A stretch of DNA of 64,000 nt from Patescibacteria group bacterium. Lineage in GTDB: Bacteria; Patescibacteriota; Patescibacteriia; Buchananbacterales; UBA6539. Positions 2,365-55,226 of this stretch are shown one piece after another; the first letter of the stretch is position 1; each line of letters begins with the position of its first letter. The stretch spans positions 65,920 through 129,919 of the forward strand of contig JBAZMQ010000002.1 of assembly GCA_041649675.1 (NCBI GenBank), in the 5' to 3' direction. A program made the position numbers and the translations under genes. The notes beneath the pieces are model-generated. The model was not told the origin of the DNA and did no database searches. It saw nothing but the letters and a program-made list of their open reading frames with translations.

Positions 2365-3114
2365 CTAGATGTAACTACTGCACGAGGCTGAACCCCACTT
2401 GGCACTGACATGGTCGACGCTACTGTAGTAGAGCCTGGGCTCACCGCCGCCGCGACACAGGTTGGGCACCTTGCCAGCGTCCTTAAACCGCGAACCAGTA
2501 GCATCAACGTTGTGCCGCGCGAGAACATCTGTATGGATGTCCAGAGCAATGGCGCCGGTTGCGATAACGCGCAGACGGCCTTGGTCCTCGATAATGGTTT
2601 TTTCGTCTTCCGGGGTAGTTTTGTCGGTGCAGAACTGCTGGCCGTCTTCCACGTCAGTCAGCCACCAGGCGATGCCTTCAGGCAATTCCACTTCGTCGGT
2701 GATCTCGTCGTCGGTCAGGTAGTTGGTGCCATCATTGCCTATGTACTTGGCCATCAGCATTTGCACACTGGCGGTCAGAAAGTCCTTGCTGATGGCGGCA
2801 AGTATTGGCAGATGGGTACCGATGATCGGCACGTTCGCGACCTTGGCAATCGCCGCTTCTCGTTTGGACTCAAGGCAGGTGACAATCGCGTCAATCTGTT
2901 CTTGCGTGACCTTGCCTTTTGCGACGAGCTCGCCGAGCCGCTGCCGCAGACAGGCGACCTGCTCGTTGGCCATGGCCAGCAATTCCTCGGCTGTGTAGAC
3001 CTTGTGCTTGCCGACCAACCCTTCCTTGATCTTTCCGAGAACTTCATCAACCTTGTCCGGCGGTACGTTGATCAGGACATCAACTGCCTCGTTCACAACC
3101 TTCCTCATGTCCAT
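2365..3114 (-). CDS. hypothetical protein, compositionally atypical (~58% GC) ORFan
   Basis: Start chosen at ATG 3112-3114 (MDMRKVVNEAVDVL...), preceded by a strong SD GAAGGGAGAAACAAAC. The six-frame ORF extends further 5' to 3243 but lacks an RBS there. Acidic, Ala-rich; no family recognised. GC far above the window background. Confidence 0.5.
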   Translation of the reverse strand: MDMRKVVNEAVDVLINVPPDKVDEVLGKIKEGLVGKHKVYTAEELLAMANEQVACLRQRLGELVAKGKVTQEQIDAIVTCLESKREAAIAKVANVPIIGTHLPILAAISKDFLTASVQMLMAKYIGNDGTNYLTDDEITDEVELPEGIAWWLTDVEDGQQFCTDKTTPEDEKTIIEDQGRLRVIATGAIALDIHTDVLARHNVDATGSRFKDAGKVPNLCRGGGEPRLYYSSVDHVSAKWGSASCSSYI

Positions 3115-3261
3115 GTTTGTTTCTCCCTTCGGAAACCTATGTTTGCCACTGCTCTCCGTGGCTCGAGATTTTCTCTGAATTTCAACAATATTGGTACTAA
3201 AACAATAACATGATAATATATCATTTATTAAACCAAATGTCAATAATAAAATACCTAAAAA

Positions 3262-3298
3262 TAAACTCCCGCCTAGAGGAGCTTATTTTTTGAACTTA
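3262..3298. terminator. candidate bidirectional terminator / repeated GC motif (AAACTCC-cgcctaga-GGAGCTT flanked by A-run and T-run)
   Basis: Hairpin with A-rich 5' flank and T-rich 3' flank, about 70 nt downstream of the nrdJ stop on the minus strand. Contains CCCGCCTAGAGG, which is also present at 2143-2154. Confidence 0.35.
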
Positions 3299-3364
3299 TA
3301 TCCAGTTAATTAGACTGCTATACCAAATGAGAATAAACTTACCTACTGCTTTTTCTATACCAAA

Positions 3365-5719
3365 TTAACCGCATTTAGAAAAACCACAAGATCGGCACTT
3401 CAAACAGCCTTCGGAAATCTCTAAAATATTGCCGCATTCCGGACATTCCGGCGCCGTACCAAAATCCGCAATATCACGCTTAATATTTAAGCCATTGCCA
3501 TTATGAGAAACTGGCGCTGGATCTGGCGCTGGTTTAGCCATCGCCTCTTTAGTCACCTGATCAGCCGAATGAAATTCTAAACCCAACTTGGGCTGATTTT
3601 GAGTGATATGACGCTCTAAAATTTGAGCAATGGCGTCAGGCAGGGACAAAACCATTCCACCCTCAGTCCAAGACGGCATCGGCCCTCTAATCCCTTTAAT
3701 TTGCTTAATTACCTCTTCTGGCGGAATTCCGGCGCGCAAAGCTAGCGACAGCAAACGGCAGACCGCTTCTGACTTGGCCGAAAAGAATCCACCGGCCTTG
3801 CCAATTGTGGCAAAAACCTCAAATGGCCGGCCTTGCTCATCGTCATTAATGGTGGTAAATAAATCACCATAGGAGGTAGTAATTTTATAGGTAGTTCCCC
3901 GCATTGCTGCTGGCCGTTCTCGTTTATAAAAAGGTTGGGCCACAACTGGCTTTTCTTCCTTTGATTGGTGGGATTTACCAGTGGTTAGAACTTGGACTTC
4001 CCGGCTGCCATCACGATAGATCGTTACTCCCTTGCAGCCGGTTTCATAAGCCAATAAATAAGCCTTGGCAATATCTTCTTTAGTAGCGGTATGAGAAAAA
4101 TTAATTGTTTTGGAAACAGCATTATCAATATGTTTTTGAAAAGCCGCCTGCATCCGAATATGCCATTCCGGACTAATATCGTGAGCCGTGGTAAAAATTC
4201 TTTTTATATCATCGGGTATTTCGGCCAAATCTTTAATTGATCCGGCTTCCGAAATTTTTTCCATCAATTCTTTTGAATAAAATCCTCGCTCTTTGGCAAT
4301 TTGCTCAAAGTAAGGATTAACTTCAACCAATTCCACCCAATCATCACCCTTTTTGCCGATATGAGATTTACGAACATAGGCCAGGGCAAATAACGGTTCA
4401 ATGCCGGAAGAACAAGAAGCAATAATGCTCAAGGTGCCGGTTGGCGCAATTGTCGTTCGGGTGGCATTGCGAATACCTTCGCTTTCTGAAGTATCGTAAA
4501 TACTACCTTCAAAGTTAGGAAAGACGCCTTTTTCTTTGGCCAAAGCCACCGAAGCTTTGTCAGCCTCTTGTTTGATAAATCGCATTACTCTTTCGGCTAA
4601 ATCAATGGCTCTTTGGCTATTGTAAGGAATTCCTAATTGAATTAACATATCGGCCCAACCCATAATGCCTAAACCAATCTTTCGGTTATTGCGAGACATT
4701 TCCCCAATTTCTTTGACCGGATATCGGTTCATGTCAATTACATCATCTAAAAATTGAACCGCAATCTTTACTAATTCACCCAAGCGTTCAAAATCAATCT
4801 TGCCTTCCAAAACGAAATTGGCTAAATTGATTGAACCCAAATTGCAAGATTCAAAAGGCAGTAACGGCTGCTCGCCACAAGGATTTGTACTTTCAATCTT
4901 GCCAATATGAGGAGTAGGATTGAACTTATTTATTGTATCAATAAAAATTACTCCCGGATCACCATTTTTCCAGGCGTGCTCAACAATTTTGTCCCAAACT
5001 TCCTTGGCTTTTAGCTTAAAAGCCAGCTGACCATCGTGAGGATTGATCAAATCATACTCTTCGTCACGGTCCAAGGCTTCCATAAACCGGTCAGTAATAG
5101 CAACTGACAAATTAAAATTATTCAATTTATCATTATCTTCTTTAGCGTTAATGAATTCTAAAATGTCTGGATGATCTACCCGTAAAATACCCATGTTCGC
5201 TCCCCGCCGAGTGCCGCCTTGCTTGATCGTATCGGTTGCTGCATCAAAAACCCGCATAAAAGAAATCGGACCGGAAGCTAAACCGTTGGTCGTTTTGACC
5301 ACGTCTTTGGCCGGACGCAAACGAGAAAATGAAAAACCAGTGCCACCGCCTGATTTGTGAATTAAAGCCGTCTGTTTAATCGCTTCAAAAATATCTTCCA
5401 TTGAATCACCAACGGGTAAAACAAAACAAGCTGATAATTGGCCTAAATCCGTGCCCGCCCCGGAAAAAGTCGGACTATTGGGTAAAAAATCCAAATTGAC
5501 CATGATTTCCAAAAAGGCCCGCTCCAATTCTTCCTTCTTCTCTTTGGATAAATTATACTTGTCTTCGGCTTTAACAATAAAACTTGATACCCGCTTAAAC
5601 ATTTCCATTGGTTTTTCCACCACTTTGCCGTTTTCATCCTTTTGCAAATAGCGGCTTTCTAAAACCTTCAAAGCATTTTTCGTTAATTTCAGTTTTGGCT
5701 CACCAACTCCAAAAATCAT
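3365..5719 (-). CDS. nrdJ: adenosylcobalamin-dependent (class II) ribonucleotide reductase
   Basis: 784-aa ORF collinear with class II RNRs (N-terminal LESRYL, catalytic-core motifs, C-terminal zinc ribbon CPECG...CLKCRSCG). Confidence 0.9.
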   Translation of the reverse strand: MIFGVGEPKLKLTKNALKVLESRYLQKDENGKVVEKPMEMFKRVSSFIVKAEDKYNLSKEKKEELERAFLEIMVNLDFLPNSPTFSGAGTDLGQLSACFVLPVGDSMEDIFEAIKQTALIHKSGGGTGFSFSRLRPAKDVVKTTNGLASGPISFMRVFDAATDTIKQGGTRRGANMGILRVDHPDILEFINAKEDNDKLNNFNLSVAITDRFMEALDRDEEYDLINPHDGQLAFKLKAKEVWDKIVEHAWKNGDPGVIFIDTINKFNPTPHIGKIESTNPCGEQPLLPFESCNLGSINLANFVLEGKIDFERLGELVKIAVQFLDDVIDMNRYPVKEIGEMSRNNRKIGLGIMGWADMLIQLGIPYNSQRAIDLAERVMRFIKQEADKASVALAKEKGVFPNFEGSIYDTSESEGIRNATRTTIAPTGTLSIIASCSSGIEPLFALAYVRKSHIGKKGDDWVELVEVNPYFEQIAKERGFYSKELMEKISEAGSIKDLAEIPDDIKRIFTTAHDISPEWHIRMQAAFQKHIDNAVSKTINFSHTATKEDIAKAYLLAYETGCKGVTIYRDGSREVQVLTTGKSHQSKEEKPVVAQPFYKRERPAAMRGTTYKITTSYGDLFTTINDDEQGRPFEVFATIGKAGGFFSAKSEAVCRLLSLALRAGIPPEEVIKQIKGIRGPMPSWTEGGMVLSLPDAIAQILERHITQNQPKLGLEFHSADQVTKEAMAKPAPDPAPVSHNGNGLNIKRDIADFGTAPECPECGNILEISEGCLKCRSCGFSKCG

Positions 5720-5985
5720 AAATATTTATAATTACTTAATCTTTAATTGAGTGAACAAAAAATAAGACAATTGGTGCCTTATTAAAAATTTTTAACCAAC
5801 CACACTTTTATTTTTCTTTTCTGAAACTTATTTTATTTTTGATTTTTTGTTCCTACTTAATATTTTACTACTTCGTCTTTTTAAAAACAAGCTGGGCAAA
5901 ACTGCCAAAATAAAGGGTTATTTTACTTCATCTTTTTCCGGCTAAAGGCGGCGGGCAGGCCCGCCGAAATCACCAAAATCCAAAC

Positions 5986-31399: not shown

Positions 31400-34300
31400 T
31401 TATTGGACACATTCTTCACCGCTTGGACAGTCATCTTTGTTATCACAACCAATAGCTGTAGTCGTCTTGCAATGACGGCAAGGAATTGCACTCTTAGAAC
31501 CGTTGCAACAGTAAGGTTCAGTTCGACTAACCTGGCAACAACTGCCTGGATTGCTTGCTAAATCACAAAAGTTAATACAATGTTGACCAACGGGGCAATC
31601 CAAGTCACCAGTACAGGCTAAATTAGTTGTGGCGCTGCAATGGGTATAAGAATCACAAGTTTCACCAGTCGGACAATCACTATTCAAATTACAAGCTGTA
31701 GTTTTAGTTAAGTTGCAATTACCATTCAAAGCCTTTGGACCTTCGGAAGGCAAATAACAATTTTGATAGACATCCTGAATACCAGAACCAATCTCCGTAC
31801 CGTAATCAGTTACTTCAGCCAGTTTGGTATGGAAAAGTAAAGTCTGAGTTCGGTCGGCGTAAGTATCAAGCGGCGGCAAATCAATATCGCGTTTACCTAC
31901 CCACCAACCGACTTGAAAAGTAGATGGATTAACCAAGGTAACATAACGTTTATTCAAACAACGTTTAGAACCACAATCACTGTTTTGTTCACAAAAAGTC
32001 TGGGTGGTCTCATTTTTACATTTATTATCCTGGCAAGTCTCGCCCTGCTTGGTGTTACAGTCCTTACTTTCTGTACTCGGGTCACAATAGCAATAGCCAT
32101 CGCGATAGTTACTGCCGGATTTGAGAGTGCTGCTCATCATTACCTGATCAAAAGCCGCTTCAACCGGTAAAGTTAAGCTGACGCCATTGGCCGCAATGTT
32201 TGGACCAACCGAGACTAGATTGGCTGGTGTTAATTTAAGACCTTTGTTGATGAAAAAATACCAAATTAAATCATCACCTTGAGAGTCAGGCAAATTAACA
32301 CACTTATTGCCACTGCCACAGGTACTATCACTAGAACAATATTTTGTCTGATCGTTGGAACAGACTTTGTTTAAGGCATAAGCCGGCTTGCCGCTTTGGT
32401 TGCCGATTTCCGTATTAACATCAATGTAACCCGGACCTTCAGCCCGACCAAAAATACTGCCGCTAGCCATGGCATAAATATTATTATTACCGTTAAAAGA
32501 ATTATTGGCGGCATCAGTTAAACCGCCGGCTGGATTTGCCGCCTGCGGATAAAAAGCATTTACCGTATCCGGTGCGGTACCAAAAACTCCCTGACAAACT
32601 TTGCTGCCGTCTGCTGCGGCCACACAAGTGGTAAAACCAGGGTCAGTACATTTCTTTTCAGCATCATCACAATCCTTTAATTTACCGGCCTTAATAAAGA
32701 CTCGGTATTTGGTGGCGTCAATATCAGCCAGCGCCGGCAAACAATAAACCTTATCGCCGCAGGAATTTTTTACTGATTCACAGCTACCACCGCCACAAGT
32801 TAAAGACTCACTGCAAGCTTGACCATCTTTGGTTCCGCCGTAGCAAATCTTGCATTGATTTTCTGGAATAAATTCAACTGTTTGGTATTGATTACTGACT
32901 AAAAATTTACCGGCCACATCGGTCCAGGTTGGAGTTTGGGTCGGATTAGAATTACTGTTATATTGGACTTTAATTGCTGTTCCGGCTTGAGCCGCAATCG
33001 GATCAATTGGTTCATTAAAATCAATAGTAATAATTGTATTTCTTGGTTTATCAGCCGCGTCGTTGGCTGTAGAATTCAATTCTGAGTCACTGCCAATAGT
33101 AGTGCTGATTGTTGCCCAATCAGCCCCGCTTGGCTTAGTATCAACCATAAAATTACCAGCATGACCAATAATGCCTGATGTCAAAGTGACTTTATTGCCA
33201 TCAAGTACCGCGGTGATTGGCGGCGTCAGGCTGTCAGCTGCGATTTTTTTCTGAATATTTCCAGCGGTAACAGCTGGCGCACCAACGGCAATATCAGTGC
33301 CAAAAGTGTAAACTTTATTAGCAATCCGTAAACCATCTGGCTGGGTAAAAGATGTTAAGGTTACTTCCCATTGATCAGCGCCATTACTAGGATTAATAAA
33401 GGATAAGGTAATTCCATCGCCTAAAGTTAAGGTGTTATTAGCGATAGTGTAGCTAGACGGTGCCCCGTCGCGAAGGGGCGACCAAGTGGCCGCAGCGCTG
33501 GTTTTAGTCGCTCCACTATTTAGCAACAAAGTAACCTTTCCGTTATAAGTACCATTATAATTACCATTAGTCACAATTTTTGGCATCGCACTTGGACTTT
33601 CACCATCCATGTTGGCGGCACTACAAGCCGGGTCAGCCATATCAATTTTGCCATTACTATTATTATCAATTCCATCCGCGCAGGCATAAGTTGGCGCTCT
33701 TCTAACAGCACTAACCGTAGCGCCACTATAAGTCCTGGGAGTACCAGTAATAGTAATTTGGGCTATGGCCGCAGTGCCAATAGTGGCAGAATACTTGTCA
33801 GCTTCATTATCCGGCTGCGGAAAAACACCACTGTTTTCAACTGGGTCTAAATCTAGGTGAGTGCCAATTTCAAACCGCCACATGAAATAATTACTACTGC
33901 CAGGAAATGCCGTATCACCATTATCTTTCTTTACTCCATTACCTAATTTGACAGCATACCAAACATTATTAGTGCCATCACCCAAATACTGAACGGGTTG
34001 GAAAGTAAAGGTTAAGCCGTCAACACTAGAGGCACTAACATTGGTTAATTTATTCTTATCAATTTCGGCTTCTGACAGTTTATAAATATAAGGATAAATC
34101 TTGACATTATCAGCATTCACTAAACCAGAACAAGGGGCAGCCACGCTGCAAGCTTCTGCCGCCTCTTTAATCAAAGTATCCGGTTTCATTTTGACTTTGA
34201 AAGTCACCATGATTTTGGTATTTCTGGCAACATCACGGGCTAACGGCAACGGATAAACACTTTGGATGATTCCATTGCCTAAGTGACCGCAGTTTTCGCA

Positions 34301-34729
34301 GCCAATCGGCGGCTGGACAGTACCACCCGGACCACCCGGACGAAAGCTGTCTTGAAGCATATTAATAATAAAGCTAACGATACTGAAGGCTGAAAAAATA
34401 ATTAGCAAACCAATGGCCGCATTACGTAAAATCCGTTTGGCTTGATCAATTTTTTCAGCGTTGCCAGCTGAAGTCATCCAAATATAGCCGGCATAAATGA
34501 TGATTACAATAGCAATAATGCCAACTAAGCCCAAAAAGATTTGGATAATCCTCATGATGGTCACCCTGATGTCTTGAGTGCTTAAGCCAGTGGCCGTGCC
34601 GTAACTTAAACCGGTGTCTAAAGCGGCCCAAACCGGAGAAACCAACATTAAAAATAAAACTACCAGTCCAAAAATAAGCATGGTAGTTCTATTTCTCTGG
34701 GAACTGAAAAAGTTTTTTTGTTTATTCAT
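31400..34729 (-). CDS. large (1109 aa) surface protein with the same pilin-like N-terminal domain (paralog of the giant gene's N-terminus) and a Cys-rich C-terminus
   Basis: N-terminus AALDTGLSYGTATGLSTQDIRVTIMRIIQIFLGLVGIIAIVIIIYAGYIWMTSAGNAEKIDQAKRILRNAAIGLLIIFSAF mirrors the giant protein. MopE-like CADGIDNNSNGKIDMADPAC motif present. SD GGGAG 8 nt upstream of the ATG. 21-nt gap to the giant gene. Confidence 0.8.
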   Translation of the reverse strand: MNKQKNFFSSQRNRTTMLIFGLVVLFLMLVSPVWAALDTGLSYGTATGLSTQDIRVTIMRIIQIFLGLVGIIAIVIIIYAGYIWMTSAGNAEKIDQAKRILRNAAIGLLIIFSAFSIVSFIINMLQDSFRPGGPGGTVQPPIGCENCGHLGNGIIQSVYPLPLARDVARNTKIMVTFKVKMKPDTLIKEAAEACSVAAPCSGLVNADNVKIYPYIYKLSEAEIDKNKLTNVSASSVDGLTFTFQPVQYLGDGTNNVWYAVKLGNGVKKDNGDTAFPGSSNYFMWRFEIGTHLDLDPVENSGVFPQPDNEADKYSATIGTAAIAQITITGTPRTYSGATVSAVRRAPTYACADGIDNNSNGKIDMADPACSAANMDGESPSAMPKIVTNGNYNGTYNGKVTLLLNSGATKTSAAATWSPLRDGAPSSYTIANNTLTLGDGITLSFINPSNGADQWEVTLTSFTQPDGLRIANKVYTFGTDIAVGAPAVTAGNIQKKIAADSLTPPITAVLDGNKVTLTSGIIGHAGNFMVDTKPSGADWATISTTIGSDSELNSTANDAADKPRNTIITIDFNEPIDPIAAQAGTAIKVQYNSNSNPTQTPTWTDVAGKFLVSNQYQTVEFIPENQCKICYGGTKDGQACSESLTCGGGSCESVKNSCGDKVYCLPALADIDATKYRVFIKAGKLKDCDDAEKKCTDPGFTTCVAAADGSKVCQGVFGTAPDTVNAFYPQAANPAGGLTDAANNSFNGNNNIYAMASGSIFGRAEGPGYIDVNTEIGNQSGKPAYALNKVCSNDQTKYCSSDSTCGSGNKCVNLPDSQGDDLIWYFFINKGLKLTPANLVSVGPNIAANGVSLTLPVEAAFDQVMMSSTLKSGSNYRDGYCYCDPSTESKDCNTKQGETCQDNKCKNETTQTFCEQNSDCGSKRCLNKRYVTLVNPSTFQVGWWVGKRDIDLPPLDTYADRTQTLLFHTKLAEVTDYGTEIGSGIQDVYQNCYLPSEGPKALNGNCNLTKTTACNLNSDCPTGETCDSYTHCSATTNLACTGDLDCPVGQHCINFCDLASNPGSCCQVSRTEPYCCNGSKSAIPCRHCKTTTAIGCDNKDDCPSGEECVQ

Positions 34730-38440: not shown

Positions 38441-38620
38441 ACCCCGCCCGCTTCGCCTTGCCATTGTTTGCTTGGTGGGTTCGAGAGGACTCGAACCTCT
38501 GACCTCTGCAATGTGAATGCAGCGCTCTAACCAACTGAGCTACGAACCCTTAAACACAATTCTAATTCTCATTTTAATTTACTTTAAGGCGGTAAAGCAA
38601 GGCGGGCGGGTAACCTCCGC
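38441..38620. repeat. GC-rich inverted repeats flanking tRNA-Val (arms about 38441-38470 and 38591-38620; core GCAAGGCG..GGGCGGG)
   Basis: The reverse complement of 38441-38470 (gcaaacaatggcaaggcgaagcgggcggggttcac) aligns with 38591-38617 (ggtaaagcaaggcgggcgggtaacc). Confidence 0.5.
38473..38549 (-). tRNA. tRNA-Val (anticodon CAC)
   Basis: Minus-strand sequence GGGTTCGTAGCTCAGTTGGTTAGAGCGCTGCATTCACATTGCAGAGGTCAGAGGTTCGAGTCCTCTCGAACCCACCA folds as a canonical cloverleaf with a 7-nt anticodon loop TTCACAT; CCA is encoded. Confidence 0.85.
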
Positions 38621-47235: not shown

Positions 47236-47660
47236 CAGCTGTTAGCTTTTAGCTGATAGCTTATAGAAAGGTTAAGCTATGTACATCCAATCGTTTAAAC
47301 AATTAACTGTTTGGCAAAAATCAATTATTCTGGTTAAAGAAATTTACCTGCTCACTCGTTGTTTGCCCAAGGAAGAGTTATATGGCTTAACTAGCCAAAT
47401 GAGAAGATCGGCAGTATCTATCCCTTCCAATATTGCTGAAGGCAAGAAACGCAAAACCAAAAAAGATTTTATTCAATTTTTAAGAATCGCTGACGGTTCG
47501 GCTGCCGAGCTAGAAACTCAAGTAATGATTGCCAAAGATTTATATCCTGACCTTAACTATTCAAAAATTGAATCCTTACTCGAAGAAGTTCAAAAAATGC
47601 TGATTACAATAATTAAAAAATTGGAAACTAACTAAAAGCTATAAGCTAACAGCTACCAGC
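47236..47660. repeat. inverted repeats flanking four-helix-bundle gene 2 (left 47236-47266 CAGCTGTTAGCTTTTAGCTGATAGCTTATAG; right 47633-47660 TAAAAGCTATAAGCTAACAGCTACCAGC)
   Basis: AGCTGTTAGCTT (47237-47248) is the exact reverse complement of 47643-47654. The right arm is identical to 38950-38971. Confidence 0.7.
47279..47635 (+). CDS. four-helix-bundle protein (TIGR02436 family), full length
   Basis: 118-aa ORF; LTVWQKSIILVKEIYLLTRCLPKEELYGLTSQMRRSAVSIPSNIAEG is the canonical family N-terminus. Confidence 0.75.
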   Translation: MYIQSFKQLTVWQKSIILVKEIYLLTRCLPKEELYGLTSQMRRSAVSIPSNIAEGKKRKTKKDFIQFLRIADGSAAELETQVMIAKDLYPDLNYSKIESLLEEVQKMLITIIKKLETN

Positions 47661-47666
47661 TAACTT

Positions 47667-49907
47667 ATGAAAAACTTAGTTATCGTTGAATCACCAACGA
47701 AAGCCAAAACCATTACCAAGTTTTTAGGGACCGACTATAAAATCGAGTCCTCTTTTGGTCATATCCGCGATTTGCCAAAAAGCAAATTAGGCGTTGATGT
47801 TGATAATAATTTTGAACCGCAATATGTTATTCCGCTAAAAGCCAAGAAGCACGTCACCGAATTAAAAAAATTAGCCGAGAAAGCAAAAATGATTTACTTT
47901 GCCACTGACGAAGACCGCGAAGGTGAAGCGATTTCTTGGCATTTAGTCCAAGCTTTAAAAACGCCAAAAGACAAAATTAAAAGAATAGTTTTTCATGAAA
48001 TCACCGAACATGCAATCAAAGAGGCTTTAAAAAATCCCCGAACCATTGATTTAAACTTAGTTGATGCCCAACAAGCTCGCCGGGTTTTGGACCGCTTGGT
48101 CGGCTATCAGCTTTCGCCTTTTTTATGGAAAAAAGTTGCCCGCGGACTTTCGGCCGGTCGCGTCCAATCAGTAGCCGTTCGATTAATCGTTGAACGCGAA
48201 CGAGAAATCCAAGCCTTCAAAGAGGAAGAATATTGGAGCATTGAGGGTATTTTTTGCCAACAGGCAGTTAAAACCGGACAAAAGCCAATGGATTTTGAAG
48301 CCAAGCTTCATCAAATTGATGGAAAAATTATTGATAAATTGGAAATTAAAGATCAAAAGCACGCCGACAAAATACTAAAAGACTTAAAAGATGCCAAATA
48401 CATCGTGGCCGATATTGAGCAACGGGAAATGAAAAAAAGTCCGCTGCCGCCTTTTACCACTTCCACCCTGCAACAAGAAGCGATTAAACGTTTAGGCTTT
48501 TCGGCGAAACAAACCATGATGATTGCTCAACAGCTTTACGAAGGTATTGAATTGGGTGCTGGCGGTGCCGTTGGTTTAATTACTTACATGAGAACCGACT
48601 CGGTCAATTTAGCCGACAAATTTTTAGACGAAACTCAAGATTATATCAAAAGTCAGTTTGGCCCGACTTATACTCCGGGCAAAAGATATTATAAAGCTAA
48701 ATCAAAATTGGCCCAGGAAGCCCACGAAGCGGTCCGGCCAACTTCAATTACTAATGATCCTCAAAGCGTCAAACAATATTTAGACCCCAGACAATTCAGG
48801 CTCTATCAGCTGATTTGGCAGCGGGCTTTAGCTAGCCAAATGGCCAATGCCATTATTGATACTTCAAAAGTTGATATTTCCGCTCAAAAAACACCTTATA
48901 CTTTTCGGGCTATTGGTTCGGTAATTAAATTTGAAGGCTATCTAAAAATTTATCCTTCCGCCACCAAAGAAAATCTTTTGCCGGAATTAAAAACCAAGGA
49001 AGGTTTGGATTTAGTGTCTTTAACACCAAATCAACATTTTACCCAACCGCCGGCCCGTTATTCAGAAGCGACTTTAGTCAAAATTTTGGAAGAATATGGT
49101 ATTGGCAGGCCTTCAACTTATGCGCCAACCATTGCCACGGTTCAAGACCGCGGTTATGTGACCAAGGAAGAAAAAAGATTAAAACCAACTGACCTAGCTT
49201 TTTTGGTCAACGACCTTTTAGTCAAACACTTCCCTAATATTGTTGACTATGAATTCACGGCCAATATGGAAAACGACTTGGACGAAATTGCCGAGGGCAA
49301 AAGAAAATGGCAACCAATTATCCACGAATTTTGGGGGCCGTTCAAATCAAATTTGGATGAAAAATATAAAGAATTAGACAAACAAGAACTGACTGAAACA
49401 AAAACCGATGAGGTCTGCGAGCTTTGCGGCAAGCCAATGGTGATTAAAATCGGCCGGTTTGGTAAATTTTTGGCTTGCACCGGTTACCCGGAATGCAAAA
49501 ATACCAAACCCTTAGCCGAAGGCGGCCTTGAGCCACAAAAACCACAAGAGACTGGCGAAAAATGTCCAGAGTGCGAAAGCCCCTTGGTTAAACGCAAAGG
49601 CCGGTTTGGCGAATTTGTCGGCTGTTCAAATTATCCTAAATGTAAGTACATTAAAAAACAACCGTCTCAAGAATTCGGTACCTGTCCCAAATGCAACAAG
49701 GGAAAAATTGTTGGCAAGCGTTCCCGCCGCGGCTGGTTTTATGGTTGCAGCGCTTATCCGGATTGTAACTTTGCCTTGTGGGGTAAACCCGTAATTGCCG
49801 AGGGTAAAACTGAGCCAGAAAAATGTCCGGACTGCGGCTCAATTTTAGTTCACGCCAAAGAAGATCAGATAAAGTGCAGTAGTAAAGAATGCAAATATAA
49901 ACAATAA
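47667..49907 (+). CDS. topA: DNA topoisomerase I with C-terminal zinc-ribbon repeats
   Basis: Toprim N-terminus MKNLVIVESPTKAKTI..., a type IA core, and four C4 zinc-ribbon modules at the C-terminus. Confidence 0.95.
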   Translation: MKNLVIVESPTKAKTITKFLGTDYKIESSFGHIRDLPKSKLGVDVDNNFEPQYVIPLKAKKHVTELKKLAEKAKMIYFATDEDREGEAISWHLVQALKTPKDKIKRIVFHEITEHAIKEALKNPRTIDLNLVDAQQARRVLDRLVGYQLSPFLWKKVARGLSAGRVQSVAVRLIVEREREIQAFKEEEYWSIEGIFCQQAVKTGQKPMDFEAKLHQIDGKIIDKLEIKDQKHADKILKDLKDAKYIVADIEQREMKKSPLPPFTTSTLQQEAIKRLGFSAKQTMMIAQQLYEGIELGAGGAVGLITYMRTDSVNLADKFLDETQDYIKSQFGPTYTPGKRYYKAKSKLAQEAHEAVRPTSITNDPQSVKQYLDPRQFRLYQLIWQRALASQMANAIIDTSKVDISAQKTPYTFRAIGSVIKFEGYLKIYPSATKENLLPELKTKEGLDLVSLTPNQHFTQPPARYSEATLVKILEEYGIGRPSTYAPTIATVQDRGYVTKEEKRLKPTDLAFLVNDLLVKHFPNIVDYEFTANMENDLDEIAEGKRKWQPIIHEFWGPFKSNLDEKYKELDKQELTETKTDEVCELCGKPMVIKIGRFGKFLACTGYPECKNTKPLAEGGLEPQKPQETGEKCPECESPLVKRKGRFGEFVGCSNYPKCKYIKKQPSQEFGTCPKCNKGKIVGKRSRRGWFYGCSAYPDCNFALWGKPVIAEGKTEPEKCPDCGSILVHAKEDQIKCSSKECKYKQ

Positions 49908-49925
49908 TAAAATTTTTAAGCTAAA

Positions 49926-49953
49926 CAAAAAATCCCCGAATCGGGGATTTTTT
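49926..49953. terminator. bidirectional rho-independent terminator (AAAAAATCCCCGAATCGGGGATTTTTT)
   Basis: 6-bp GC-rich stem ATCCCC/GGGGAT flanked by an A-run and a T-run, 20 nt after the topA stop. Confidence 0.65.
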
Positions 49954-49973
49954 GTATCATTGACAAAATTGTT

Positions 49974-50156
49974 TTAATAAATTGCGCCCAACGAATAAGA
50001 AACAACCGATAGGGCTAAATACATTGGCAAAACCAGCGTGGCCGTCAGCACCAAATACGTGCGGGCGATGTCAAAATCCATATCCCCGACTTTCTGCGGC
50101 ATTGGGCCACATTGCATCTGGGGCGTTGTTTGACTTGTGTCTTGAATCTGTTGCAT
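49974..50156 (-). CDS. hypothetical small membrane protein (60 aa)
   Basis: ORF with one hydrophobic helix (LVLTATLVLPMYLALSVV); no RBS; GC about 48%. Weak call. Confidence 0.2.
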   Translation of the reverse strand: MQQIQDTSQTTPQMQCGPMPQKVGDMDFDIARTYLVLTATLVLPMYLALSVVSYSLGAIY

Positions 50157-50968
50157 ATGTTTGTTTTTGTTTTATCCCAACTTGCCGTTGAGAATTTTTA
50201 TTTTCCCTGATTTTAAAGGATCAAACATCGCGGCAATTTTTTTAAAGAAATAAACTGAGTTGGACCGCGTGTTAATTTTGATTTTTGTTTTTTGGCGCCC
50301 GCGTGTTATCTTGGGGCATATTGTCACGCCGTAGGTCACCTGAGGCAACCAAAGGCGGACAAATTAAAAAGATAGGGCAATCCCTATCTGAACTCTATAA
50401 ATACAGTATAGCATACCTAAATTATTTTGTCAACTTAGTTTGCAATGCGGTTGGAAGAGAGTTAGACCCCGAAACCATGTTGATGCTAGGGTACTCCTTC
50501 CAAACCGCAAAGTTATCTTAACAAATCCCTCAATTTTTGGCAATAAAAAAAGATCCGCCATTAAGTGGATCCATTTTTTTGACTGGTTATGATCCAGTTA
50601 CCCATTGACGGTGCAGCGGTTGGGTGCCGCTCCTCTTTGGTTTGACCGATGGCTCGGGGGTAAGAAGTTCAGGGCAGCCAGAAGGCTGGAAGCAGCAGCG
50701 TCCTGACTGGAATCCTGCAACTAAACTATGTTTAGTTTGCTCCTTTTAAGTCTTAACCACCTTCTTTGCTAATGTGCAATTTTGGACGCAGTAGCTTCGC
50801 TAGGACTTCAACGTCTGTTTCATGAGAGATATCCTCCTACGCTTTTTGTTGAATGTTTACCTTTATCATACTACCGCTAGGGTTAGCGGCAATACATCAA
50901 TATTACATAAATTTTTAAAAAAGTCAATAATAAAAAAGAACCAATCACTACGAAATAATTGGCTCGTG

Positions 50969-51212
50969 TTAAGTTTGCTCTTCTGACTGGCTTTGCTCAA
51001 CCAGCAAAAAGAATTCGCTGGCCAATAGCCCCAGAGCTTTGATAATTTTGAGCAGTGTCATTAAATTAAAGCTTTTCTTGCCTTTTTCAAGGTTAGACAC
51101 CTGCCCCTGACCGACTCCGGCTAAGTTTGCCAGCTCTGCCTGGTTCCAATGTTTTTCTGTCCGGAGCCGGTATGCTACTCTGGCGGAATGCCAGCCGCTC
51201 AGGTTTTGTCAT
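50969..51212 (-). pseudogene. XRE-family helix-turn-helix regulator, apparently disrupted by a +1 frameshift
   Basis: ATG at 51210-51212 has a good SD (GGAGGG, 8-nt spacer) and reads MTKPERLAFRQSS..., hitting a stop after 39 codons. The +1 frame from 51208 reads ...VAYRLRTEKHWNQAELANLAGVGQGQVSNLEKGKKSFNLMTLLKIIKALGLLASEFF... (a textbook XRE HTH) to the stop at 50969-50971 but has no in-frame start codon. Confidence 0.45.
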
Positions 51213-51456
51213 TATTTGGCCCTCCAAGGTTGCGTGGGTATATTAACAAAAAACCGGACAAAAGAAAACACCTTGAGTTTGACCACAAGGCGTTCTCTCG
51301 GTTTCTAGGATCTCTCCTAGCATCATGCCGGCAGCTTAGCACATTTTTTTAAACTTGTCAAGCCCCCACCATATAAAAACTCAATGACTAAGTTGCTTTT
51401 TAGAGTTATTTGCTCTAGAATAAATTATAATGTAAATTAAAATTTCAGCTAAAAAT

Positions 51457-52980
51457 GTGGCTACAATTGAAACTTTACTAAAAATTCTCAAAGGAGATAA
51501 TGACAAGGGAAATCAAAAAATGACAATTTTTCCCCATTTTCGGAGTCATAAAAATGAATATGATTTAATCATGATCAAATTGGCCTATGAGTTCGCTGAG
51601 CAAGCCCATAAAGGCCAACTGCGAAAATCGGGCGAACCCTACATTGAGCATCCGCTTCAAACTGCCATTATTTTGGCAAAAATGGGAATGGATCAGCCGT
51701 CAATAATTGCTGCTCTATTGCATGATGTGCCAGAAGACACTAATTACAGCTTAATTGATATTGAAAAAAATTTTGGCAGTGAAGTGACAAAACTAGTAGC
51801 TGGTATTACCAAATTAGGCGTGATTAAATATCGCGGCATGGAAAAATACGCGGAGAATTTACGCAAAATGTTTATTTCCATGGCTGAAGATATTAGAATA
51901 ATTTTGATTAAAATGGCTGACCGGCTGCATAATTTAAAAACTTTAGCCGCTTTGCCAGTGGAAAAACAAAAAAGAATTGCTCGGGAGAGTTTGGAAATTT
52001 ATGCGCCAATTGCCAATCGCTTAGGCATGGGGCAAATCAAAGGTGAATTGGAAGATTTGGCTTTTCCTTATATCTATCCGGAAAAATTCAAGTGGTTTGA
52101 ACAAGATATTTTGCCAAAAATTAAAATTGAAATGGCCTATACCCAAAAAGTTATTGAAATTGCCAGAAAAGAATTAGCCAATGAAAAAATTAAAATAATT
52201 TCCATTCATGGTCGGGCCAAACGGCTCTATAGTCTGTACCAAAAATTACTTCGGCCTCATTATGACGGTGATGTTTCAAAAATTTATGACTTAGTGGCCC
52301 TGCGTATTATTGTCCCCACCGTGGCTGATTGCTATCAATCTTTAGGTATTATTCATCGTTTATGGAAACCATTGCCTAGAAGAATTAAAGACTATATTGC
52401 CCAGCCAAAACCTAATGGCTATCAGTCTTTGCATTCCACGGTTTTTTGCCTGGACGGCAAAATTGTTGAATTTCAAATCAGGACGCCTCAAATGCATGAA
52501 CAGGCTGAATATGGTATTGCCGCTCATTGGCATTACAAAGAGAATAATAAGAATCCAAAAAAAATCGGCGAGAAGGGATATATTTTGCCAAAAAAATTAA
52601 CTTGGATTGAGGATTTGGTTAAATGGCAAAAAGAGATCCAGGACAATGAACAATACTTGCAATCACTGGCAATTGATTTTTTCCATAACCGAATTTTTGT
52701 TTTTACGCCCAAAGGCGATGTCATTGATTTGCCCGAAGAAGCCACACCAGTTGACTTTGCTTATCATGTCCACAGCTGGATTGGCGACCATTGCACCGGT
52801 GCCAAAGTCAACAATCAAATGGTGAGTTTGGATTCCAAACTAAAAAACGGTGACGTTATTGAAATCATCACCGATAAAAATAGAAAGGGCCCAAGCCAAG
52901 ATTGGATGAAATTTGTCAAAACCAGTGCGGCTAAAAGCAAAATCAAGCCAAGACTCGGCCACTCACGGTTTCAAAACTAA
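51457..52980 (+). CDS. rel: RelA/SpoT-homolog (p)ppGpp synthetase/hydrolase (HD + synthetase + TGS domains)
   Basis: HD-domain HDVPEDT motif, a nucleotidyltransferase synthetase domain (...RAKRLYSLYQKL...), and a TGS domain (GDVIEI). Confidence 0.85.
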   Translation: MATIETLLKILKGDNDKGNQKMTIFPHFRSHKNEYDLIMIKLAYEFAEQAHKGQLRKSGEPYIEHPLQTAIILAKMGMDQPSIIAALLHDVPEDTNYSLIDIEKNFGSEVTKLVAGITKLGVIKYRGMEKYAENLRKMFISMAEDIRIILIKMADRLHNLKTLAALPVEKQKRIARESLEIYAPIANRLGMGQIKGELEDLAFPYIYPEKFKWFEQDILPKIKIEMAYTQKVIEIARKELANEKIKIISIHGRAKRLYSLYQKLLRPHYDGDVSKIYDLVALRIIVPTVADCYQSLGIIHRLWKPLPRRIKDYIAQPKPNGYQSLHSTVFCLDGKIVEFQIRTPQMHEQAEYGIAAHWHYKENNKNPKKIGEKGYILPKKLTWIEDLVKWQKEIQDNEQYLQSLAIDFFHNRIFVFTPKGDVIDLPEEATPVDFAYHVHSWIGDHCTGAKVNNQMVSLDSKLKNGDVIEIITDKNRKGPSQDWMKFVKTSAAKSKIKPRLGHSRFQN

Positions 52981-54847: not shown

Positions 54848-54924
54848 TGGTAGCGAGGGTGGGGATCGAACCCACGACCTAAGGGTTATGATTCCTTCGC
54901 TCTGACCAACTGAGCTACCTCGCC
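54848..54924 (-). tRNA. tRNA-Met (anticodon CAT; elongator-type, or possibly Ile2-lysidine)
   Basis: GGCGAGGTAGCTCAGTTGGTCAGAGCGAAGGAATCATAACCCTTAGGTCGTGGGTTCGATCCCCACCCTCGCTACCA; cloverleaf with anticodon loop ATCATAA, a G1-U72 wobble, and encoded CCA. Confidence 0.8.
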
Positions 54925-54959
54925 GCGGCAAATGAGAATATATAAACGAAATAATAATT

Positions 54960-55034
54960 TGGTTGCGGGGGCGGGAGTTGCACCCGCGACCTCTAGGTTA
55001 TGGGCCTAGCGAGCTGCTACTGCTCTACCCCGCG
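54960..55034 (-). tRNA. initiator tRNA-fMet (anticodon CAT)
   Basis: CGCGGGGTAGAGCAGTAGCAGCTCGCTAGGCCCATAACCTAGAGGTCGCGGGTGCAACTCCCGCCCCCGCAACCA; C1xA72 mismatch and a 5'/3' acceptor identical to E. coli tRNAfMet (CGCGGGG...CCCCGCAACCA). Confidence 0.85.
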
Positions 55035-55141
55035 TCGGATATTAATCATTAACCTTTAACAATTAACTTCATAATAGTACTTCTTTATCTAATATCTGTC
55101 AATCCAATAGTAGTTAATTGTAGAGTGTTAGTTGTTTTGAA

Positions 55142-55226
55142 TGGTGCCCGAGGAGAGACTCGAACTCTCATGCCTTGCGGCACACGATTTTGAGTCGTGC
55201 GTGTATACCAATTTCACCACTCGGGC
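55142..55226 (-). tRNA. tRNA-Leu (anticodon CAA), class II with long variable arm
   Basis: GCCCGAGTGGTGAAATTGGTATACACGCACGACTCAAAATCGTGTGCCGCAAGGCATGAGAGTTCGAGTCTCTCCTCGGGCACCA; anticodon loop CTCAAAA and a 13-nt variable arm. Confidence 0.85.

Follow-up and report, generated by a model that had tools for sequence, protein, structure and literature searches.

Pairs of a small RNA (sRNA) and its sponge, or anti-sRNA, are known from GcvB-SroC, AgvB-GcvB and RoxS-RosA, and antisense control in which a loop is met by a 5' tail is known from CopA/CopT and Sok/hok. The present study concerns a locus of a Patescibacteria group bacterium whose RNAs appear to resemble both kinds. It lies in a stretch of 64,000 nucleotides (assembly GCA_041649675.1, contig JBAZMQ010000002.1, positions 65,920 to 129,919), to which we refer as the window, and consists of the tract between the genes topA and relA/spoT, which the original prediction had described as decayed and non-coding. 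We consider it probable that this tract is a compact island of minus-strand units with sigma-70-type promoters and intrinsic terminators, which contains two RNAs, termed C and B, that form an antisense pair, and which has received the insertion of a gene encoding a regulator of the XRE family. In common with the described systems, C and B are short RNAs with predicted promoters and terminators of their own, the single-stranded seed at the 5' end of C would meet an exposed loop of B, and the resulting duplex of 10-15 nt appears to be upheld by compensatory evolution. In contrast to the described pairs, C and B are tandem units of one strand whose locus, between topA and relA, is fixed; they are found in Patescibacteria, match no Rfam family and are known from sequence alone. 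Full-text literature searches and a paper on 224 candidate RNA motifs yielded no description of such sRNA regulation in Patescibacteria.

The gap between topA and relA extends over 1.55 kb. As initially stated, it holds no long open reading frame (ORF), the longest one found mechanically between the end of topA at 49907 and the start of relA at 51457 comprising 78 codons, and the gene caller of the sequence collection made no call in this gap. Its characterization as decayed is at odds with the conservation of its blocks in many related genomes. Our comparison relied on two sets of sequences, the relA neighbourhoods of 80 species and loci from metagenomes and assemblies that encode the small protein adjacent to the tract. 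The closest named relatives are metagenome-assembled genomes (MAGs) of Candidatus Buchananbacteria, with a RelA identity of 83%. Searches with blastn and nhmmer recovered blocks of the tract in the loci L002, L003, L005, L006 and L068 and in 12 metagenome and 10 further loci. The region contains 12 promoter-like sites where 3.6 are expected, and six terminator-like sites compared to an expectation of 1.9. The claim of a GC content above background does not apply to the tract, whose value of 40.9% is close to the window mean of 40.2% and is equalled or surpassed by 42% of 1.3-kb windows; elevated values are found in the sub-segments D (45.8%), XRE (47.5%) and B (53%).

The sigma-70-type promoters and intrinsic terminators of the predicted transcripts C and B are kept in all genomes. 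In case of C, TTGACA and the -10 hexamer of the promoter are retained in every genome aligned, the fold has a z-score of -4.7, eight of the 11 stem pairs of the terminator show compensatory changes and the profile finds matches in more than 20 loci. In case of B, the promoter pattern TTGnnn-17-TGn-TAnnAT is kept, with a variable spacer, in 14 of 14 genomes listed, and the fold z-score amounts to -4.96. Within the hairpin of B, 92.2% of the cells are paired in 18 genomes and 11 of the 18 pairs show changes on both sides, whereas none of 500 shuffles reaches any of these measures and slid controls are paired in at most 53% of cases. A covariance model built from B sequences (R1) gives 91.6 bits for the minus and 17.5 bits for the plus strand, so that B combines a secondary structure supported by covariation with a pronounced strand asymmetry. 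The same model detects B upstream of relA in L052, L078 and L050, and more weakly in L075. The apical loop is almost invariant across the Buchananbacteria-like group. We have also considered that B, read on the plus strand, would be a paralogue of C, and have rejected this assignment in light of the absence of a plus-strand promoter, the conservation of the promoter on the minus strand and the difference in the scores of the covariance model.

The relationship between both RNAs is defined by their complementarity. The 5' seed of C and the loop sequence CCUAGCAUCA of B are reverse complements, a match that was reported independently by a repeat finder, and in the 64-kb window the complement of the seed is found in B only. 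A gap-free alignment of both sites from 18 genomes shows a core of 10 bp that is paired in 18 of 18 cases and in which five pairs have changed on both sides (11 cells). The segment GAUGC of the site is replaced by GAUAC in L006, L088 and L099, by AAUGU in L068 and L085 and by GAUAU in L103, each time with a matching change in B, and the sole cells of the core that deviate from Watson-Crick pairing are G·U pairs in the sense of the minus strand, which is the transcribed one. The covariation score was reached by none of 500 shuffles, and slid registers are 27-54% paired compared to 89% in the observed register. An extension of the complementarity to 27 nt is found in the window only, the conserved part being the core of 10-14 nt.

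The same relationship extends to distant lineages (L052, L078, L050, L075, L063 and L081), which keep the order of C followed by B between relA and topA and which contain other seeds with a cognate complementarity of 10-15 nt. These comprise AUGGUGAUAUUUGGG with CCCAAAUAUCACCAU in L052, AGAUGUAAGGG with CCCUUACAUC(U) in L050 and L075, GGUAAUGUCAAG with CUUGGCAUUACC in L063, where one U·G pair is included, GUGAUGUUAAGG with CCUUAGCAUCAC in L081, and a matched pair with a single-base bulge in L078. Energies calculated with RNAduplex average -23.7 kcal/mol for cognate and -17.0 kcal/mol for non-cognate combinations, and the cognate B ranks between first and third out of 11.

The intermolecular complementarity is thus upheld by compensatory changes in each of the genomes compared, a feature by which a base-pairing sRNA pair is recognized. 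The pair is well supported by this comparative evidence, and C and B are best read as an antisense sRNA pair whose transcripts are predicted. In such a mechanism, C would be a trans-acting antisense sRNA, and pairing would be nucleated by contact of its single-stranded 5' end with the exposed B loop (GCAUCAAC). From there, the duplex would spread into CCUAG, opening the apical stem of B and the first hairpin of C, which shares CUAGG, and one RNA would titrate or remodel the other as in a pair of sRNA and sponge or in antisense control. In the lineage of the window, where B is located just upstream of the promoter of the small-protein gene, it may additionally influence this gene. Transcription of the island would proceed from the C promoter into C, followed by a promoterless XRE cassette, from the D promoter into a further RNA termed D, from the B promoter into B, and from the promoter of the small ORF through a hairpin and a leader of 240 nt into the gene of a protein of 60 residues. 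The coordinates of all features are compiled in Table 1.

Table 1. Annotated features of the topA-relA region, in window coordinates
Feature	Position	Strand	Description
topA	47667-49907	+	Left flank of the tract
Bidirectional intrinsic terminator	49930-49955	.	Common to topA (+) and the small ORF (-); inverted repeat AAAAAATCCCCGA/TCGGGGATTTTTT; terminator-type Rfam alignments
Small membrane protein gene	49974-50156	-	60 aa; polar N-terminus, DMDFDIxRT motif, C-terminal transmembrane segment
5' leader of the small ORF	50157-50398	-	About 240 nt; conserved GCCC..GGGC hairpin at 50297-50317; repeated AAAAACAAAAA tracts
Hairpin after the small-ORF promoter	50362-50389	-	AGATAGGG-N4-CCCTATCT and U tract directly after the promoter; terminator-like, 8 pairs
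Small-ORF promoter	50405-50433	-	Near-consensus sigma-70, TTGACA-17-(TGC)TATACT; 11 of 12 hexamer positions, extended -10
RNA B	50447-50508	-	62-nt hairpin; covarying basal and middle stems, conserved apical loop; candidate C-binding site CCUAGCAUCA at 50490-50481
B promoter	50515-50543	-	TTGCCA-17-(TGT)TAAGAT; predicted transcription start at hairpin base
RNA D	50545-50893	-	Candidate structured RNA of about 350 nt; 5' hairpin, Shine-Dalgarno (SD) sequence and mini-ORF, 3' domain, terminator
D terminator	stem 50571-50552, U tract to 50545	-	Strong
Motif resembling domain IV of signal recognition particle (SRP) RNA	50655-50700	+	Inside D on the opposite strand; not supported
SD and mini-ORF in D	SD 50837-50832, ATG..TAG 50823-50800	-	GGAGGA, 8 nt, MKQTLKS (7 codons)
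D promoter-like site	50900-50927	-	TTGACT-16-TAATAT; -35 kept in L082
Terminator of the XRE cassette	50938-50965	-	Intrinsic; 12-pair stem and TTTTTT
XRE-family gene, frame B	50969-51202	-	Helix-turn-helix (HTH) protein; 77 codons from CTG 51202-51200, stop 50971-50969
SD, ATG and out-of-frame ORF, frame A	51093-51225	-	SD GGAGGG 51225-51220, 8 nt, ATG 51212-51210; 39 codons, overlapping the XRE frame
sRNA C	51258-51327	-	About 70 nt; 5' seed GAUGCUAGG (51324-51316), hairpin CUAGG..CCUAG, A-rich linker, intrinsic terminator
C promoter	51333-51361	-	TTGACA-17-(TGC)TAAGCT; divergent from relA
relA/spoT	51457-52980	+	Right flank of the tract

RNAs that contain a mini-ORF are known from SgrS/SgrT, RNAIII/hld, the leader peptides of erm and cat and the bar minigenes of lambda, and RNA D appears to resemble these. 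It shares with dual-function and leader RNAs an SD sequence positioned 7-9 nt before an ATG, an ORF of 6-8 codons, its embedding in a longer structured RNA and a terminator of its own, whereas it differs by the lack of a downstream gene in the unit, by the approximately 250 nt of structured RNA that follow the ORF and by a peptide that is conserved in its length and TAG stop but not in its sequence. Homologues of D are located between C and B in L002/L082 (E ~1e-10) and in L088 (E ~5e-4). A wider search for homologues of D or XRE returned the B/C module without D or no module within the flanks, and one new member of D, L105, which also resides between C and B (E = 7.5e-8 with the profile and 2.9e-38 against L088). 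D is absent from L003, L006, L091-L094, L096-L103 and others, and thus from most relatives, and a scan of viral contigs with conserved patterns of D and B gave no match. Indels within D are not multiples of three, its two closest copies have no common reading frame, and its fold has z-scores of -3.05 (minus strand) and -2.30 (plus strand).

The SD sequence and the mini-ORF constitute the best-conserved block of D in the comparison of the window with L082, and their layout, consisting of an SD, a spacer of 7-9 nt, 6-8 codons and TAG, is found in five elements (those of the window, L082, L088, L105 and L089). The corresponding peptides are MKQTLKS in the window, MKTMLSS in L082, MFNNFT in L088 and MMKNTG in L105; the element at the position of D in L089 follows the same layout with the peptide MKHIRNSS and has no detectable sequence similarity to D, and the copy at this position in L087 is cut off at its 5' end. 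The 3' domain contains a common ACCGUCA loop and a hairpin CUGG-N7-CCAG, which is found as UUGG/CCAA in L088, and individual hairpins (the 5' hairpin, CUGG/CCAG and the terminator) covary among four homologues from two subclades. Collectively, these features point to D as a candidate RNA of dual-function or leader type whose mini-ORF is probably translated. The region of its mini-ORF (GAAACAGACGUUGAAGUCCUAG, 50823-50800) resembles the complement of the B loop (50490-50470) and the C seed, with a potential duplex with the B loop of 12 bp in L082 (D positions 84-95) and of 5+5+4 bp in the window, and none in L088 and L105. As an unconfirmed lead, this resemblance may be left over from a common origin or may indicate a third partner in pairing.

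The XRE gene appears to encode an ordinary single-domain regulator of the Cro-C1 type (PF01381), with a complete HTH_3 domain in about 77 residues (45.2 bits compared to a cut-off of 23, E = 9.5e-12), and it is the one match of Pfam among the short ORFs of the tract. The nearest NCBIfam model, TIGR03070 of Y4mF/HipB-type antitoxins, stays below its cut-off. In contrast to known members of the family, the gene in the window lacks a canonical in-frame start, a gene for a partner toxin and a promoter of its own. It is part of a cassette of about 330 bp (~51245-50930) that separates the C terminator from the D promoter and comprises an SD, the gene and its own terminator. Since there is no recognizable promoter within the cassette, its transcription would be possible only by read-through from the C promoter. 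In L082, the terminator of C runs directly into the promoter of D, and a search with tblastn found no XRE gene in any other locus of the comparison. Judged from these loci, the cassette is a species- and lineage-specific insertion.

As the original prediction had recognized, the HTH is shifted by +1 with respect to the ATG that is preceded by an SD. The frame of this ATG (frame A) ends after 39 codons and encodes nothing recognizable, whereas the HTH is found in frame B, which opens right after the stops TAA TGA, contains no ATG, GTG or TTG ahead of a GTG at 51100-51098 that is already inside the HTH, and can thus draw on no canonical start codon with a ribosome binding site, but only on a CTG at 18 nt from the SD. 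With the HTH in one frame and the SD-ATG in the other, the shift has to be located within ACAAAACCTG (51209-51200), where runs of A4 or C2 at 51207-51202 are candidates for its position. The only homologue retrieved in a word-indexed protein search is an NCBI entry (P0001) of 77 residues beginning with MSGWHS, which is identical apart from the initiator residue. It originates from a Patescibacteria contig of 131.5 kb on which RelA and the small protein are likewise identical to those of the window, and therefore from the same or a near-identical population. Its annotation starts exactly at the position of the CTG of the window, which implies that the same stop codons are presumably found upstream. 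A Logan assembly of SRR8542065, which evidently derives from the same sample as the ENA assembly ERZ27247363 (k141_1106175), matches the window with 100% identity over 49824-51575. The agreement of a second assembler on the same sample excludes an assembler artefact but not an artefact at the level of reads, so that the assembly error considered in the original prediction is unlikely in its assembler-specific form.

We slightly favour a recent pseudogene, generated by insertion of a single nucleotide into the A4 or C2 run, over weak initiation at the CTG. The insertion offers a simple and full explanation of the frame, and an out-of-frame ATG at the ideal spacing of 8 nt is hard to reconcile with initiation at a CTG 18 nt from the same SD. 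Somewhat less probable, though a serious contender, is an intact gene that either starts at the CTG (51202) or is expressed by +1 ribosomal frameshifting, the SD-ATG ORF serving as a regulatory upstream or overlapping ORF. Frame B, if started at the CTG, spans the whole HTH with 12 residues before the first position matched by the profile, the gene carries no other lesion, residues 2-77 of the protein from the NCBI MAG are identical and two assemblers have returned the same sequence. However, reading of the sequence ACA AAA CCU GAG reveals no convincing +1 slippery site, and since the genome encoding P0001 is near-identical (with a RelA identity of 100%), the absence of further decay says little.

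The final unit of the island encodes the protein of 60 residues, for which 48 homologues were found, all taxon-named ones in Patescibacteria, and which matches no family of Pfam, NCBIfam or PHROG. Its orthologues are syntenic beside topA in L002, L003, L005, L006 and L068, and the gene adjoins topA in most genomes with known flanks. The transcription signals and the leader of this gene together account for positions 50157-50433 of the supposedly non-coding tract. The promoter pattern occurs once in the 64-kb window compared to an expectation of zero, and relatives keep its hexamers with a variable spacer. The hairpin that follows is likewise found once in the window, and the sequence of its stem, GATAGG/CCTATC, is itself kept in L002, L005, L006, L083, L086, L087, L090 and L091. 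It is a candidate for either a terminator or attenuator or a sequence-specific binding site. In L005, a second copy of promoter and hairpin (~5870-5960, minus strand) precedes the gene of a membrane-anchored AAA+ ATPase, and the cassette is thus not specific to the small ORF; its conserved stem sequence suggests a putative recognition site for protein or RNA.

The leader of the small ORF is matched in L002, L006, L003 and L005 by nhmmer. The ORF lacks an SD, and AAAACAAAAACAAACAU precedes its ATG (50157-50175, minus strand). A similar A/C-rich tract is found after the GCCC..GGGC hairpin of the leader (50285-50300, minus strand), whereas the XRE gene and the mini-ORF of D carry a canonical GGAGG. 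A segment of the leader (50185-50200) is, at the level of DNA, complementary in 15 of 16 positions to codons 8-13 of relA (51479-51494), so that the mRNAs of the opposite strands both carry the string UAAAAAUUCUCAA(C/A)GG, a 12-nt version of which recurs in L002. The string could be a shared site for an sRNA or a protein, or a coincidence of AT-rich sequence.

The proximity of a small hydrophobic protein to these RNAs is reminiscent of type I toxin-antitoxin systems such as tisB/istR-1, zorO/orzO and shoB/ohsC. In a module of this kind, the 60-residue protein would be the toxin and C the antitoxin sRNA that acts on B as part of the leader of the toxin mRNA. The C-terminal transmembrane segment of the protein, the complementarity of C to a hairpin that lies upstream on the same strand and, in the lineage of the window, the succession of B and ORF with no strong terminator between them conform to this possibility. 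We nevertheless consider it unlikely, as the obligatory linkage of antisense RNA and small hydrophobic protein gene that characterizes these systems is not found. B and C are present without the ORF, and B is followed by its own terminator, in L081, L029, L052, L078 and L075, and conversely the ORF with promoter and hairpin is found without B in L083 and L086, from which it follows that the pair predates the ORF and does not depend on it. Moreover, the ORF is preceded by a near-consensus promoter of its own, located downstream of B, and its usual position beside topA contrasts with the patchy distribution expected of type I toxins.

An alternative that we regard as still less probable holds that the complementarity of B and C reflects an inverted repeat at the level of DNA, such as sites for protein binding or recombination at a hotspot for cassettes, instead of an interaction between RNAs. 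Covariation alone cannot tell both models apart, and the two sites do flank a region of differing cargo, which includes D, XRE and repeated hairpin elements such as an insert in L094. Yet each site is part of a unit with a conserved promoter on the same strand, one site occupying the 5' end of C and the other the B loop, every exception to Watson-Crick pairing is a G·U in the transcribed sense and the stems of B covary as RNA. Additionally, there is no integrase or transposase nearby and the conservation reaches well beyond the repeats. A related proposal, which envisages a transposon with the B/C repeats as its terminal inverted repeats, was rejected on the grounds that conservation continues outside of the repeats and that there is no transposase.

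The interval between C and B differs in length and content among genomes, ranging from 12 to 540 bp. In L094 (3465-3585 and 6647-6736), it contains an insert of 120 nt, a palindromic element that recurs at another place of this locus (E = 5e-10), and other long hairpin inserts are found between B and the promoter of the ORF in L087, L091 and L006. The topA-relA island has the appearance of a site at which small repeat elements land. The variability of the interval, the species-specific insertion of the XRE cassette with its frame defect and the fact that the best family matches of the XRE protein, although all below threshold, are HTH proteins of phage or antitoxin type could be taken to indicate that the tract is the remnant of a decayed prophage or integrated element with a dead repressor, the remainder being junk. 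This view, which was part of the original prediction, holds for the XRE cassette as an insertion with a defect in its start frame, but it is very improbable for the tract as a whole. Except for these approximately 330 bp, the tract is kept in other genera, where promoters and terminators are intact and stems covary; it contains no genes of phages or mobile elements and shows no matches to viral contigs, and its GC content is not atypical. A direct repeat of 14 nt, which had been noted in the tract, is indeed present with a match of 13 out of 14, but the direct repeats are near the level expected by chance for a pattern chosen post hoc, their order differs between the two copies and they are not conserved.

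The weakest of the proposals, that an unannotated SRP RNA (ffs) would have its domain IV core at 50655-50700, or that the tract would encode a transfer-messenger RNA (tmRNA), 6S RNA or RNase P RNA, can be dismissed with near certainty, since the described string and its 5-bp hairpin with a GNRA cap are present but neither Rfam 15 at gathering score, which in the 64 kb detects four tRNAs only, nor a search of 49850-51550 on either strand at E<=10 returned any match to SRP RNA, tmRNA, 6S RNA or RNase P RNA, whose covariance models had been named as a check, nor did ARAGORN find a tmRNA. The resemblance of CAGG-GCAGCC-AGAA-GGCUGG-AAGCAGC to the arrangement AGG..GNRA..GGAAGCAGC is superficial. With bacterial small SRP RNA (RF00169; RF01854 for the large type), it shares on the plus strand a GNRA-capped hairpin followed by GGAAGCAGC, but it differs in its helix geometry, its stem from the GNRA loop to the AGCAG side counting 5 bp where that of SRP RNA is short and conserved in length, and in its strand, which is antisense to the unit of D that is framed by promoter and terminator. 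The GGAAGCAGC motif lacks conservation in L082 and L088, in whose homologous D the segment aligns poorly, and the element bearing it is missing from most relatives, which would be unexpected for an essential RNA. The matches found in the tract at E<=10 are at chance level and concern families that contain terminators, B, C and D match no family of Rfam 15, whether in the window or among nine related loci, and L081 and the related loci yielded tRNAs and chance-level terminator look-alikes only. The broader suggestion that the tract hosts unannotated genes of non-coding RNAs has thus proven fruitful, although not in their identity as ffs. The tRNAs of the window comprise a cluster of tRNA-Met, tRNA-Met and tRNA-Leu at 54848-55226 (minus strand), downstream of parA/parB, and a tRNA-Val at 38473-38549 (minus strand).

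Other features of the window and its relatives concern the neighbourhood of the island. A protein of 118 residues encoded between folC and topA (47279-47635, plus strand) matches PF05635, the four-helix bundle of 23S rRNA-intervening-sequence proteins, and weakly bAvd; in L003 this protein is absent at the equivalent position and folC abuts topA. In L096, an ENA assembly of a relative, topA (2740-4980, minus strand) is split into a Toprim ORF of 87 residues and a remainder of 577 residues, whereas it is intact with 746 residues in L097, a JGI contig of the same species, and the split probably reflects an assembly error or a strain-level frameshift. Farther away, a single giant ORF of 6854 residues occupies 10814-31378 on the minus strand, next to an ORF of 1109 residues at 31400-34729 (minus strand). 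Very large proteins of this kind, presumably located at the surface, have been reported from genomes of the candidate phyla radiation (CPR).

Several considerations weigh against our view of the tract as an island of RNA units with an antisense pair. All transcripts, 5' ends and terminations were deduced from sequence patterns, and the covariation of two inverted sites of 10-14 nt could in principle stem from DNA repeats that undergo gene conversion. The 3' end of B is uncertain in the window and in L002/L003, since its hairpin is not followed there by the U tract present in other genomes. The -10 hexamer of the promoter of D is poor in L082, and the structure of D rests on four sequences in two subclades. 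The terminator-like appearance of the hairpin right after the promoter of the small ORF fits oddly with a promoter that would drive this ORF. Finally, as both assemblies originate from one sample, an indel at the level of reads could still account for the frame at the start of the XRE gene.

A more far-reaching reading, which we advance tentatively and consider less probable than the island of RNA units as such, is that C and B constitute an ancient sRNA/anti-sRNA switch that has so far escaped description, that D represents a new class of RNAs of about 350-500 nt that requires translation of a mini-ORF of 6-8 codons, and that the interval between C and B is a preferred landing site for small cassettes, either self-contained or promoterless, of which the XRE gene would be an example.

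Patescibacteria, which are also known as CPR, have tiny and gene-dense genomes, and a conserved stretch of 0.6-1.5 kb consisting of non-coding transcription units is notable in this light. The work also has consequences for annotation, as it removes a false candidate for ffs and as the start of the XRE gene in NCBI would be non-canonical, provided that the record carries the sequence of the window. It illustrates that a tract of a MAG that is free of ORFs and appears decayed can be functional RNA space, which gene callers and Rfam currently miss. The comparative support for C and B is unusually clean, since a single interaction is kept with different sequences across lineages, and the pair thus offers a concrete and testable hypothesis for an apparently undescribed module of a familiar mechanistic class in a poorly understood group of bacteria. 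If true, C and B would form an sRNA/anti-sRNA switch that is fixed between topA and relA in several lineages of the Patescibacteria.

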